Source: a plasmid. From it: a DNA stretch of 64,000 bases. The notes below the pieces were generated by a model. The model ran no database searches. It was not told the origin of the DNA and saw only the letters and a list, made by a program, of their open reading frames with translations. A program made the translations under genes and the position numbers. The stretch lies in NCBI RefSeq assembly GCF_058153355.1, contig NZ_JBLWLY010000002.1. The stretch is one strand, 5' to 3'. Below are positions 19,255-61,910 of the stretch, in pieces (positions within the stretch are counted from its first letter, which is position 1; each line of letters starts with the position of its first letter).

Positions 19255-19766
19255 TGTGTGTCACGAAGGAGTACTTATGGCAACAATGTGAAAATTGCAG
19301 CATAAGTTATCCATGCTCTGAGGTGGGTGGAGGTGGGCCCTCCGGTCAGGGTTTACAGGAGCACTGACCAAACGACCCGGTGCTGCTTCATTCTAAGGAA
19401 TGAGGTGGTGAGCGACTCGGGAAAAGGCAGAGATCTACTGTCACGTGGGGTTCGGGAAGCTGAACGAAAGTAAACTGTCCGATGAAGCATCGAAATCTTA
19501 GATGATGTCAAAATGGGGCCGTACAGCCGTCCCCTGATAAGCGCAGAAGACACCTGCTTACTGACTGCGCGGCATCCGGTGTGAAGGCAGCAGGATCCCG
19601 GGCCAGACCATCTCAGGGAACGTGAGAACCTGTTTCCGGCACGTATCGGGAAACAGGGGCGGACCCATTCGTAGTAGTGATGAAAGATCTGTAATGGGTC
19701 TGGAGCGAAGGGATGGGGATCACATTCATTGCAGAAGACACAACCCAAAAGGGGATGACGTAACTG

Positions 19767-20606
19767 ATGCAACGAAAATCATTTGAAATACCAAAAGCAC
19801 TGGTCTGGGCATCATATCTGGATGTGCGTCGCAACAAGGGAGCCCCCGGATGCGACGGGCAGACTTTGAAAATGTTCGACCAGCAACGTGATGGCAATCT
19901 ATACAAGATCTGGAACCGGCTATGTTCGGGAACATGGTTTCCGCCACCAGTGCTGGAAAAACGGATCCCGAAGTCGAATGGCAAGGAACGCATTCTGGGG
20001 ATCCCAACAGTATCCGATCGAATTGCTCAGGGAGCGATAAAACTTTTCATGGAAGAAAAGCTTGACCCGATTTTCCATGCTGATTCATATGGTTACCGAC
20101 CAGGCAAATCAGCTCATGACGCTCTGAAACAATGTGCCATCCGGTGCTGGCGTTATAGCTGGATACTGGAAGTGGACATCAGTGCGTTTTTCGACCATGT
20201 GAGACATGATCTGGTGCTCAAAGCTCTGGAACACCACGGGATGCCTAAATGGGTCATCCTGTACTGTCGACGCTGGATGGAAGCGCCAATGCAGAGTTGT
20301 GAAAATGGAGAATTAATAACCCGAACACGAGGCACTCCGCAGGGCGGGGTCATTAGTCCACTACTTGCTAACTTGTTCCTTCACTATGCATTTGATTTGT
20401 GGATGGAAAGAGAATATCGGGGGGTACCGTTTGAGAGGTACGCTGACGATATTGTAGTACATTGTTCACGAATGAGTGATGCAACAAGGCTGAAGAACAG
20501 GTTATCGGAGCGCTTCTCGGAAGTCGGGCTGGTCCTGAATGCAGGGAAAACGAATATCGCCTACATTGACACGTTTAAAAGGAGAAACGTCGCAACGAGT
20601 TTCACC
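19767..20606 (+). pseudogene. Group II intron reverse transcriptase/maturase, interrupted by IS66 copy 2; C-terminal part resumes at 23083..23476
   Basis: RT motifs (..PQGGVISPLLANLFL.., ..YADD..) identical to the intact 410-aa copies at 36768..38000 and 60598..61830 up to ..VATSFT. Confidence 0.8.
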
Positions 20607-20636
20607 GTAAGCGGCTCGCCAGAACCGTATTGATAT

Positions 20637-22208
20637 TTACTGAGAGCTCAGATCAACTTTCCAGGGCAACAGATCGCGTACCCGGTTTGCCGGCCAGTCC
20701 TGGATATGTTCAATGACGTAACGCAGCCACTTTTCTGGCTCCACATTGTTCAGACGGCATGTGCCGATCAGCGAGTACAACACCGCAGCATGTTCACCAC
20801 CGCTGTCAGAACCCGCGAAGAGCCAGTTTTTCCGGCCTACGGCCACTCCCCGTAAGGCGTTCTCTGCGATGTTGTTGTCGATTTCCACCCAGCCATTACT
20901 GCAGTACACGTTCAGTGCATCCCACTGTTTCAGCAGGTATGCGAACGCTTTTGCCGTGTCCGAGTGACGCGACAGTGTTTTCATCTGTTGCTGTATCCAG
21001 TCATACAGTGACTGCATCAGTGGCGCGGCTCTGGCTTTTCTTGCCGCCAGACGCTGTTCTGCTGAACAGCCCCGGACCTCTGCCTCGATGGCATACAGTT
21101 CACCGATACGCTGCAGGGCTTCCGTGGTGATGTCGGTGGGCACTCTTGCATGCACATCGTGGATTTTTCTCCGGGCATGAGCCATACATGCGGCTTCCGT
21201 TATTCTGCCGGATTCGTACAACGCCCGGTAACCACCGTAAGCATCGGCCTGAAGCACTCCGCTGTAACCGGCCAGATGATTCTGTGGATGGATACCTTTC
21301 CGGTCCGGGCTGTACGCGAACCAGACCGCCGGAGGCATTTCCGAACCGGCGTTACGGTCATCACGAACGTAGACCCACAGCCGGGCAGTCCTTGTTTTAC
21401 CGCTGCCCGGCTCCTGGACCGGAACGGGGATATCATCGGCATGGACTTTACCGGGCATCAGCACATACTGGCGCAGGATGTCATACAGCGGTTCCAGCAG
21501 TTCAGCAACAGCACCTGTCCAGCGCCCCAGTGTGGCACGGCTCAGCTCCACGCCCTGACGACGGTATATTTCTGACTGGCGGTATAACGGCAGATGGTCT
21601 GCATATTTTCCAGCGACAACATGGGCCAGAAGCCCCGCTCCGGCATAACTGCGTGCAATGGGTTTTGAAGGCACCGGAGCCTGCACGATATGGTCGCACC
21701 GGCAACAGGCCAGTTTCGGACGTTGTGTTTCGATAACCTTAAAGGCGCTGCTGATAAGCTCCAGTTGCTCTGACACATCACATCCCAGAGAACTGAGTTC
21801 GCCACCACAGGCCGGGCAGCATTCCTCTTCCGGACGGATGACCCGGGTTTCACGGGGAAGTGAGGCAGGTAACGGTTTACGGGCTGAAGACTGGCGCAGG
21901 GGAGATGGCAGTACCGGGTCATATTGCTCACCCAGCGTTTCCGCCATTTCTTCCTGAAGAGCGCTGATTCGCTCCTGTGCTTCCTGTATCTGCCGTTCGG
22001 TTTTTGCACGAAGTTTTTCTGAGCTTTTACCGAACTGCATGCGCTGCAGTTTTGCAACCAGCGCCTTCAGCCGGTTGATTTCGGAAGCATAAGCCGCCAC
22101 CCGCTGTGAGAGCAGGCGGTTGTATTTCGCCATCTGGCGGATGGTGTCCTGTTGCGTCTGCAACAGTGCCCGCAGGCGGGCATTCTCATGAGCAAGTGAG
22201 GTGTCCAT
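20637..22208 (-). CDS. tnpC: IS66-family transposase TnpC (intact, 523 aa)
   Basis: Full-length ORF; zinc-finger-like CxxC pairs and DDE-type C-terminal region typical of IS66 TnpC. Confidence 0.9.
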
Positions 22209-59840: not shown

Positions 59841-59870
59841 GCGTCAATACGGTGCTCCGTTGACGCTTAC

Positions 59871-60086
59871 GGTGACGGGCTGTGCCTCCTGACCAAACGG
59901 CTGGAGCGTGGGCGTCAGCCCGTGATGGCAAAGTGTTCCTTCGGACACGGCAAAAGCGTTCGCATACCTGCTGAAACAGTGGGTATGCACTGAACGTGTA
60001 CTGCAGTAATGGCTGGGTGGAAATCGACAACAACATCGCAGAGAACGCCTTACGGGGAGTGGCCGTAGGCCGGAAAAACTGGCTCT
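59871..60086 (+). other. Short IS66 type A fragments (tnpB-like and tnpC 3' piece) forming the 5' exon of intron copy 3
   Basis: Sequence ..CGGACACGGCAAAAGCGTTCGCATACCTGCTGAAACAGTGGG..GGCCGGAAAAACTGGCTCT immediately precedes the intron. Confidence 0.5.
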
Positions 60087-61910
60087 GTGTGTCACGAAGG
60101 AGTACTTATGGCAACAATGTGAAAATTGCAGCATAAGTTATCCATGCTCTGAGGTGGGTGGAGGTGGGCCCTCCGGTCAGGGTTTACAGGAGCACTGACC
60201 AAACGACCCGGTGCTGCTTCATTCTAAGGAATGAGGTGGTGAGCGACTCGGGAAAAGGCAGAGATCTACTGTCACGTGGGGTTCGGGAAGCTGAACGAAA
60301 GTAAACTGTCCGATGAAGCATCGAAATCTTAGATGATGTCAAAATGGGGCCGTACAGCCGTCCCCTGATAAGCGCAGAAGACACCTGCTTACTGACTGCG
60401 CGGCATCCGGTGTGAAGGCAGCAGGATCCCGGGCCAGACCATCTCAGGGAACGTGAGAACCTGTTTCCGGCACGTATCGGGAAACAGGGGCGGACCCATT
60501 CGTAGTAGTGATGAAAGATCTGTAATGGGTCTGGAGCGAAGGGATGGGGATCACATTCATTGCAGAAGACACAACCCAAAAGGGGATGACGTAACTGATG
60601 CAACGAAAATCATTTGAAATACCAAAAGCACTGGTCTGGGCATCATATCTGGATGTGCGTCGCAACAAGGGAGCCCCCGGATGCGACGGGCAGACTTTGA
60701 AAATGTTCGACCAGCAACGTGATGGCAATCTATACAAGATCTGGAACCGGCTATGTTCGGGAACATGGTTTCCGCCACCAGTGCTGGAAAAACGGATCCC
60801 GAAGTCGAATGGCAAGGAACGCATTCTGGGGATCCCAACAGTATCCGATCGAATTGCTCAGGGAGCGATAAAACTTTTCATGGAAGAAAAGCTTGACCCG
60901 ATTTTCCATGCTGATTCATATGGTTACCGACCAGGCAAATCAGCTCATGACGCTCTGAAACAATGTGCCATCCGGTGCTGGCGTTATAGCTGGATACTGG
61001 AAGTGGACATCAGTGCGTTTTTCGACCATGTGAGACATGATCTGGTGCTCAAAGCTCTGGAACACCACGGGATGCCTAAATGGGTCATCCTGTACTGTCG
61101 ACGCTGGATGGAAGCGCCAATGCAGAGTTGTGAAAATGGAGAATTAATAACCCGAACACGAGGCACTCCGCAGGGCGGGGTCATTAGTCCACTACTTGCT
61201 AACTTGTTCCTTCACTATGCATTTGATTTGTGGATGGAAAGAGAATATCGGGGGGTACCGTTTGAGAGGTACGCTGACGATATTGTAGTACATTGTTCAC
61301 GAATGAGTGATGCAACAAGGCTGAAGAACAGGTTATCGGAGCGCTTCTCGGAAGTCGGGCTGGTCCTGAATGCAGGGAAAACGAATATCGCCTACATTGA
61401 CACGTTTAAAAGGAGAAACGTCGCAACGAGTTTCACCTTTCTCGGATATGACTTCAAAGTGCGTACGCTGAAGAATTTCAAAGGCGAACTGTACCGAAAA
61501 TGCATGCCGGGTGCGTCAAATGCAGCAATGCGCAAAATAACAGAAACAATCAAGAAGTGGCGTATACATCGCTCAACAGCTGAGAGTTTGCTGGATTTTG
61601 CGAGGCGCTACAATGCGATAGTGAGAGGCTGGATCGAGTACTACGGAAAGTTCTGGTCCAGAAATTTCAACTATCGACTGTGGAGTGCAATGCAGTCACG
61701 TCTGCTCAAGTGGATGCAGTCTAAATACAGACTTTCGAACCGGAAGGCTCAGCGAAAGCTGACGCTGGTAAGGAAGGAGTATCCGAAGCTATTTGTTCAC
61801 TGGTATTTACTACGTGCATCAAATGAGTGATCAAGAGCCGTATGACGCGAGAGTGTCACGTACGGTTCCGTGAGCAGCCGGGGAGTGAAATTCTCTCCGG
61901 CTGACTCGAC
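60087..61910 (+). mobile_element. Group II intron copy 3 (1824 bp) at the same IS66 tnpC site
   Basis: GTGTG...CTCGAC boundaries; exon flanks ..CTGGCTCT / TCGCGGGTTC.. as in the intact tnpC. Confidence 0.85.
60598..61830 (+). CDS. Group II intron-encoded reverse transcriptase/maturase (intact, 410 aa)
   Basis: Identical protein to 36768..38000. Confidence 0.9.
   Translation: MQRKSFEIPKALVWASYLDVRRNKGAPGCDGQTLKMFDQQRDGNLYKIWNRLCSGTWFPPPVLEKRIPKSNGKERILGIPTVSDRIAQGAIKLFMEEKLDPIFHADSYGYRPGKSAHDALKQCAIRCWRYSWILEVDISAFFDHVRHDLVLKALEHHGMPKWVILYCRRWMEAPMQSCENGELITRTRGTPQGGVISPLLANLFLHYAFDLWMEREYRGVPFERYADDIVVHCSRMSDATRLKNRLSERFSEVGLVLNAGKTNIAYIDTFKRRNVATSFTFLGYDFKVRTLKNFKGELYRKCMPGASNAAMRKITETIKKWRIHRSTAESLLDFARRYNAIVRGWIEYYGKFWSRNFNYRLWSAMQSRLLKWMQSKYRLSNRKAQRKLTLVRKEYPKLFVHWYLLRASNE

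Follow-up and report, generated by a model that had tools for sequence, protein, structure and literature searches.

The plasmid contig NZ_JBLWLY010000002.1 (NCBI RefSeq assembly GCF_058153355.1) provided the 64,000-nucleotide (nt) stretch analysed here, which as a whole we call the window. It contains three copies of one group II intron, identified below as E.c.I3, all placed at a single point of tnpC, a gene of IS66-family insertion sequences (ISs). Copy C (60087..61910, plus strand) is complete at 1824 nt, running from GUGUG to AC with Rfam matches, and copy B (36688..38511, minus strand), also complete at 1824 nt, has 0 differences from it. Copy A, on the plus strand, comes in two parts, intron nt 1-1351 at 19256..20606 and nt 1344-1824, with domains V and VI, at 23076..23556. 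Both parts are 100% identical to copy C, and they are split by a 2469-bp IS66-family IS that has produced an 8-bp target duplication of intron sequence, GTTTCACC. An earlier reading of these letters, hereafter the original prediction, had described three group II introns at one point of an IS66-family tnpC and in the sense orientation of that gene; both statements were borne out, with matches to RF01999 and RF00029 in every copy and 100% identity among all of them, and the start given for copy A, 19255, had to be corrected to 19256.

The intron boundaries are unambiguous when set against an uninterrupted site. In all three copies the 5′ exon ends in AACTGGCTCT and the intron opens with GTGTG, and the next exon base after AACTGGCTCT is T; the intron ends, 5′ GUGUG and 3′ ..CUCGAC, conform to the consensus 5′ GUGYG and 3′ AY in the E.c.I3 copies. 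Placement at a single tnpC junction held for every copy; the 3′ exon of copy A starts with TCGCAGGTTC rather than the TCGCGGGTTC of the original prediction. The uninterrupted site was said to be visible in the intact tnpC at 20637..22208, and it was indeed located there: the window has a single instance of the empty-site 18-mer CTGGCTCTTCGCGGGTTC, on the minus strand at 20809-20826, within the intact 523-residue tnpC of the IS inserted in copy A.

That inner IS (20607..23075, minus strand; target duplication GTTTCACC) is an intact 2469-bp element of the IS679/ISCro1-like type lying within the open reading frame (ORF) for the intron-encoded protein (IEP) of copy A. On the minus strand it carries tnpA (22572-23000), tnpB (22228-22575) and the 523-residue tnpC (20637-22208), the last with the sole unoccupied homing site. 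TnpA, TnpB and TnpC of the inserted and host elements were identified by the NCBIfam models NF047595, NF033819 and NF033517, and relatives of these elements carry the PGAP label IS66-like ISCro1 family. Their terminal repeats start with GTAAGCG, and the 8-bp target duplications are GTTTCACC and TGCTGCGC.

The hosts of the three introns are unlike one another. The 5′ part of the outer IS that holds copy A (15561..19255, plus strand) is 100% identical to the inner IS over 2150 bp and is interrupted in its tnpA region by an IS4-family element (15680-17105; 448-residue transposase at 15693-17039, minus strand); IS nt 1-119 lie at 15561-15679 and nt 108-2257 at 17106-19255, both on the plus strand, with IS nt 108-119 forming a 12-bp target duplication. 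The 3′ exon of copy A, haplotype A3′, follows at 23557..23768 (plus strand). For copy B, the 3′ exon (36476..36687, minus strand) matches the 3′ end of the inner IS with 100% identity and has TGCTGCGC directly after it, while the 5′ exon (38512..39064, minus strand) is of the IS679/ISCro1 type only as far as ∼39044-39064 (∼530-550 bp). The ORF upstream of copy B (38462-39943, minus strand) is a three-part chimera: its N-terminus is tnpA-like, the next segment is from a second TnpC of the IS66 family and is related to 58249-59523, and the IS679/ISCro1-type TnpC comes last, a composition that suggests recombination among IS66-family members. Copy C is preceded by a 5′ exon remnant comprising the last 146 bp of the 5′ part of tnpC with a 1-nt insertion (59941..60086, plus strand) and followed by the last 212 bp of the IS, haplotype C3′ (61911..62122, plus strand). 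The claim that tnpC genes are interrupted applies to all three copies, with the qualification that only copy A sits in a full-length IS: copy B lies on the minus strand in a chimeric host, and copy C adjoins a stump.

Scanning the window with Rfam identified domain I (RF01999, 91.9 bits; gathering threshold 36) and domain V/VI (RF00029, 57.1 bits; gathering threshold 40) in all three copies, at 19329-19445 and 23479-23556 for copy A (plus strand), 38322-38438 and 36688-36765 for copy B (minus strand), and 60160-60276 and 61833-61910 for copy C (plus strand). In copy C, domain V is a 34-nt hairpin with the AGC triad and a 2-nt bulge (61835-61868, plus strand), and in domain VI (61871-61908, plus strand) the A at 61904 is bulged and lies 7 nt away from the 3′ splice site. 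Folding of domains V and VI had been proposed as a check on the element, and these three hallmarks were all present; the fold of 61835..61908 has an energy of -49.1 kcal/mol (z = -5.3). Domain I of E.c.I3 could be aligned with those of 16 related introns.

The IEP ORF lies at 60598..61830 in copy C (plus strand) and at 36768-38000 in copy B (minus strand), and encodes a protein of 410 residues with reverse transcriptase (RT) and maturase (X) domains and a YADD motif. The protein matches the NCBIfam model TIGR04416, group_II_RT_mat, with 393.9 bits against an equivalog cut-off of 300, and the Pfam domains RVT_1 (residues 67-285) and GIIM (311-385). Its best-matching solved structures are group II intron reverse transcriptases, and it is 46% identical over its full length to a 419-residue, RmInt1-like IEP of Sinorhizobium meliloti. 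No DNA-binding, HNH or endonuclease domain was matched in NCBIfam or Pfam, and the protein stops ∼25 residues past GIIM, in agreement with the original prediction of a 410-residue RT and maturase from which an endonuclease is absent. By its boundaries, its domains I, V and VI, its exon-binding sites (mapped below) and its IEP, the element in the window is a group II intron.

Comparison with catalogued bacterial group II introns, which had been recommended as a first step, produced a match. Leclercq and Cordaux (2012; PMC3522654) named introns of this set by >90% nucleotide identity to a catalogued copy (Table S2) and reported that E.c.I3 specifically targets IS679. Against the reference copy E.c.I3-2b of Escherichia coli 536 (1824 nt; NC_008253 4007952-4009775; PMC3522654 Table S3), the intron in the window is identical at 1805 of 1824 nt (19 differences; 99.0%), and its IEP differs at 3 of 410 residues. 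The exon junction of the E. coli 536 copy is the same as in the window. Given 19 differences in 1824 nt and this shared junction, we conclude that the element is E.c.I3 (Zimmerly database; PMC3522654), which it resembles in its 1824-nt length, its tnpC junction and its near-identical IEP. Both the intron and its IS679 homing site are already in the literature, and the element is not new. Full-length 1824-bp copies have been described in E. coli ED1a and 536, and fragments have been recorded on virulence plasmids of Shigella flexneri, S. boydii, S. sonnei and S. dysenteriae; one of the latter is a 1789-bp piece without the 37 bp of the intron 5′ end and 900 bp of the 5′ host IS679, and others measure ∼120 bp and 360-619 bp (PMC3522654). 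Whereas the published Shigella-plasmid examples are fragments, the window holds two complete copies with intact ORFs and a third that is complete but for the IS insertion.

Two other systems help to place E.c.I3. RmInt1 of S. meliloti, a class D (IIB3) intron that homes into ISRm2011-2, likewise lies inside an IS transposase gene and encodes an RT/maturase IEP without an endonuclease. Its domain V sequence is nearly identical to that of E.c.I3, and the two introns share the layout EBS2, EBS1, EBS3, where EBS stands for exon-binding site, with EBS3 in the coordination loop at position 329; the host IS family and target sequence of RmInt1 are unlike those of E.c.I3. The class D membership of E.c.I3 (IIB-type) is taken from PMC3522654 Table S2, and the 46% IEP identity and RF01999-type domain I lend some support to that placement. 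E.c.I4, whose hosts are the IS3-family elements IS629 and IS911, shares with E.c.I3 and other IS-targeting introns the habit of homing to a conserved stretch of a multi-copy transposase gene, as well as a patchy distribution with many unoccupied sites (PMC3522654); it differs in being listed as class A and in its host IS family.

To map target recognition we relied on comparative alignment. Domain I of E.c.I3 was aligned with those of seven other RF01999-type introns that reside in different targets: the YADD region of another intron's RT, Tn3-family terminal repeats, an IS5-like transposase, an unidentified Burkholderia target, and a different motif of a Rhizobium IS66-family tnpC. In one hairpin, the sequence of the terminal loop changes in step with the 5′ exon of each of the eight introns. 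Cognate EBS1 pairing averaged 5.75 of 7 positions against 3.9 for non-cognate exons (permutation p = 1.5e-4). This alignment identifies EBS1 of E.c.I3 as ACAGCCG (intron nt 268-274; 60354..60360, plus strand), facing the intron-binding site (IBS) IBS1, UGGCUCU, at -7 to -1; six of seven positions pair, five by Watson-Crick and one by G:U, leaving a C:C mismatch at -2. The predicted EBS2, UCUU (nt 241-244; 60327..60330, plus strand), occupies a loop homologous to the EBS2 loops of other introns, and pairs at three of four positions, with an internal A:C, to AAAA at -13 to -10 of the IS in the window. The predicted EBS3 is A329 (60415, plus strand), opposite IBS3, T(+1), to form A:U; the corresponding alignment column is complementary to the first 3′-exon base in seven of the eight introns, and in RmInt1 EBS3 is G329 (PMC3123198).

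The mismatch at -2 is a recurrent feature. Unlike RmInt1, relatives of E.c.I3 share imperfect EBS1 pairing at this position: EBS1 position 269 is C or U among them, and -2 is unpaired or wobble, never Watson-Crick. Exons of the relatives read AAGAAC in seven of nine cases, giving perfect pairing with UCUU. The idea that both guide mismatches would vanish in an AAG/CTG variant of tnpC was half supported, as AAG is common in the relatives and CTC is kept in seven of nine. A naive scan of domain I for 6-8-nt complements of the 5′ exon had yielded misleading candidates, which were dropped after the comparative alignment: GGGCCAG at 345-351 is part of a domain I stem, UUUCCGGC at 378-385 is part of a domain II stem, and GGGGCCG at 260-266 is part of the stem of the EBS1 hairpin itself.

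How the three copies arose can be judged by setting the introns against their hosts. The introns are the same at every one of their 1824 nt. Their 212-bp 3′ exons are not, with 7 (A/B), 9 (A/C) and 6 (B/C) differences; in Fisher tests of 0/1824 against these 3′-exon counts, p lies between 1e-6 and 1e-9. From the inner IS, too, the 3′ exon of copy A differs at 7 positions, and the first difference between A and B is at +5. Outside the IS ends the sequences around A, B and C are unrelated, where flanks shared beyond the IS66 element would have pointed to duplication, and the host structures are themselves dissimilar: a whole IS with an IS4 insertion for A, a partial 5′ exon fused to another tnpC for B, and 146 bp for C. 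Because identical introns occupy hosts with three 3′-exon haplotypes and unrelated flanks, separate retrohoming, rather than duplication of one interrupted IS, is the reading to be preferred. Sequence comparison thus supports three separate and apparently very recent homing events into IS copies that had already diverged, consistent with the site-specific retrohoming into tnpC that had originally been proposed. The explanation that accounts for the locus as a whole, and that we consider very probable, is that E.c.I3 is a class D intron that homes to a fixed position in tnpC, did so here on three separate occasions, and lives as a retroelement parasitising ISs.

Several observations weigh against this explanation. 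No difference separates the 5′ exons in any stretch that allows comparison, and for this reason the case for independent hosts depends on the 3′ exons and outer flanks. The intact homing site at 20809-20826 is empty despite the presence of two apparently intact intron copies. EBS1-IBS1 pairing has its C:C mismatch at -2, and EBS2 pairs poorly with IBS2 of the IS in the window. Finally, copies A and C are on the plus strand and copy B, like the empty site, is on the minus strand; with B opposite in orientation to A and C, the three cannot all lie on the lagging-strand template of one unidirectional fork.

Among other explanations, the one that fares best is that a single IS66-family element was invaded once and that the resulting 4.3-kb composite of IS and intron was then multiplied by transposition or segmental duplication. 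It would account for the identity of the three introns and for 5′ exons that are identical over the comparable ∼530 bp of A, B and the inner IS, and A and B have demonstrably recombined with each other. We nevertheless regard it as improbable: the 3′ exons differ at 6-9 of 212 positions, beginning 5 nt past the end of an intron without a single change; unrelated sequence lies beyond the IS ends of A, B and C; and the left IS end, which transposition requires, is missing from two of the three hosts. Old independent insertions homogenised by gene conversion, in which case intron identity would say nothing of recent mobility, are less probable again. Recombination between copies is evident on this plasmid from the A/B inversion described below, and IS and intron repeats are plentiful; the conversion tracts, however, would have to stop, in one pair, no more than 4 nt from where the intron ends on its 3′ side and leave no mosaic inside the 1824 nt of any of the three copies, and the Shigella and enteroinvasive E. 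coli (EIEC) virulence-plasmid (pINV) copies among the matches listed, which are 5′-truncated and ∼0.4-0.6% different, indicate that old copies do diverge.

The remaining question concerns the consequences of insertion for the host gene. Precise excision of copy A would restore a 523-residue TnpC with one substitution, and that of copy B would give a chimeric 537-residue protein; copy C offers no usable 5′ exon, its host gene being a frameshifted stump of 146 bp. In copy A the intron itself is broken by the 2.5-kb IS and the host tnpA is split by IS4. With B and C in chimeric or truncated host genes and the intron of A broken, whether splicing preserves the transposase is a largely moot question, above all for B and C. 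That E.c.I3 is mainly a true tnpC intron, spliced efficiently enough to restore transposase and let IS and intron coexist at no cost, is accordingly the least credible alternative, for its sense orientation and the single amino-acid change left by excision of copy A are set against the chimeric host ORF of B, the frameshifted stump of C, the broken intron and split tnpA of A, and an in vivo exon ligation in RmInt1 of only 0.07% (PMC3123198). We infer instead, in part by analogy with RmInt1, that E.c.I3 would act as a retroelement, inactivating each IS copy into which it inserts, and not as a device that preserves transposase expression.

A retrohoming cycle consistent with these features would begin with transcription of the intron together with its host gene, and, by analogy with RmInt1, the 410-residue IEP may aid excision of the intron as a lariat. 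The ribonucleoprotein could then locate another IS copy through EBS1/IBS1 pairing, the A329/T(+1) contact of EBS3 and a weak EBS2 contact, whereupon the intron RNA would reverse-splice into the target DNA. Because the IEP is without an endonuclease, the RNA would probably be copied with the nascent strand at a replication fork serving as primer; PMC8914252 describes use of the lagging-strand template at replication forks in RmInt1 mobility. After homing, an intact sister IS transposed into the intron of copy A, and recombination between the inverted composites A and B then appears to have flipped the intervening segment.

Evidence for the last of these steps comes from the flanks. The 8 bp to the left of the copy A IS, TGCTGCGC, are repeated immediately past the end of the copy B IS; when the A-left and B-right flanks are joined through a single TGCTGCGC, the product is contiguous in >1000 plasmids and makes an IS3-family orfA whole again. 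On the EIEC plasmid pCFSAN029787_01, this IS3-like sequence comes uninterrupted after the mxi-spa region, and next to it the window from 36475 to 24162 runs in reverse, so that the segment between composites A and B (23769..36475), which carries virA, icsA and RnaG, is inverted relative to that plasmid. From the shared TGCTGCGC, the rebuilt orfA and the synteny with pCFSAN029787_01, it follows that the 5′ half of A and the 3′ half of B were once one IS, identical to the inner IS. Inversion of 23769-36475 thus appears to be the product of recombination between the inverted IS::intron composites A and B. The apparent inversion may alternatively be an artefact of assembly across the IS::intron repeats. 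The elements here are nested: an IS3-family element holds an IS66-family element, and E.c.I3 sits inside the latter and in turn holds another IS66-family element; the IS4 insertion comes in addition.

The small RNA RnaG, an antisense regulator of icsA (28070-28189, plus strand), the CopA antisense RNA of an IncFII-type replicon (42866-42956, minus strand), the ALIL frameshift pseudoknot of an IS3-family element (30241-30357, plus strand) and the mxi-spa synteny together identify the window as part of a Shigella/EIEC pINV-type plasmid. For such a plasmid the complete copies of E.c.I3 are unusual. Among the matches listed from PLSDB, every Shigella/EIEC pINV copy starts at intron nt 37 or 90, and in contrast to the window these are 5′-truncated fragments, while the 5′ exon-intron junction is kept in only four PLSDB plasmids, all from E. 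coli. No plasmid arranged like the one in the window turned up in PLSDB. A nesting of IS within E.c.I3 on the EIEC reference plasmid, considered as a parallel to copy A, proved not to be so, since the IS there directly adjoins a piece of E.c.I3 (nt 1197-1815) as well as a different intron. Empty targets, which favour independent homing, are far more numerous than occupied ones: of 5426 complete E. coli genomes, the site is matched in 1841 but carries the intron in only 55.

Beyond E. coli, a cross-species scan for AAYTGGCTST followed by the intron start, with one genome per species, returned nine loci, in Pseudomonas (4), Burkholderiales, Budvicia, Salinibius, an uncultured gammaproteobacterium and Haloferula. 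At each of the nine, an E.c.I3-like intron (69-95% nucleotide identity) occupies the same tnpC codon in IS66-family genes that are otherwise divergent, which again favours independent homing. In Rhizobium etli, pRetNXC12d (2112-3969) carries a related endonuclease-less intron in an IS66-family tnpC at another conserved motif, with an EBS1 that matches it; within one transposase family, separate introns of this group have thus come to occupy separate positions. On S. meliloti pMl1 (714-2574), an RmInt1-like intron has inserted precisely where the RT gene of another group II intron encodes YADD, so that one intron is nested in the other.

Conceptually, the window offers little that is novel, as introns that target ISs, E.c.I3, its IS679 site and its remnants on Shigella plasmids were all known. 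Its value is as a clean, ordinary and well-resolved case of recent multi-copy retrohoming, with identical introns in non-identical hosts, in which mutual invasion of IS and intron and rearrangement of the virA-icsA virulence region via IS::intron composites can be seen side by side. Rearrangement by recombination between such elements was suggested on general grounds by Leclercq and Cordaux (PMC3522654). The modest additions made here are intact and recently multiplied copies on a virulence-plasmid backbone, a map of guide and target, the breadth of the association between these introns and IS66-family elements, and the icsA-region inversion; the intact copies and the mapped EBS/IBS scheme could be used for mobility tests. 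We put forward more tentatively, as a possibility that falls somewhat short of probable, the broader proposal that E.c.I3 is still or was very recently mobile here, in contrast to dead fragments on the Shigella and EIEC virulence plasmids compared, that its composites drive structural change, and that its lineage has tracked the ..KNWL|F.. motif across several orders and phyla while keeping position -2 unpaired.

Other repeats and intron remnants are also present in the window. An inverted pair of IS21-like 2.1-kb sequences (13148-15278 and 46919-49049; 99.8% identical) forms another potential substrate for inversion. A sequence at 31481-31667 (plus strand) matches RF01999 with 116.9 bits and has no domain V downstream. 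It was considered as the 120-bp E.c.I3 fragment of the literature and rejected, being only 73% identical to E.c.I3 (nt 101-258); it derives from a different, degenerate intron shared with EIEC virulence plasmids, where it is 98% identical and annotated 'reverse transcriptase/maturase family protein'. At 34398-34478 (minus strand), a sub-threshold match to RF00029 (37.3 bits; gathering threshold 40) is probably another intron remnant.

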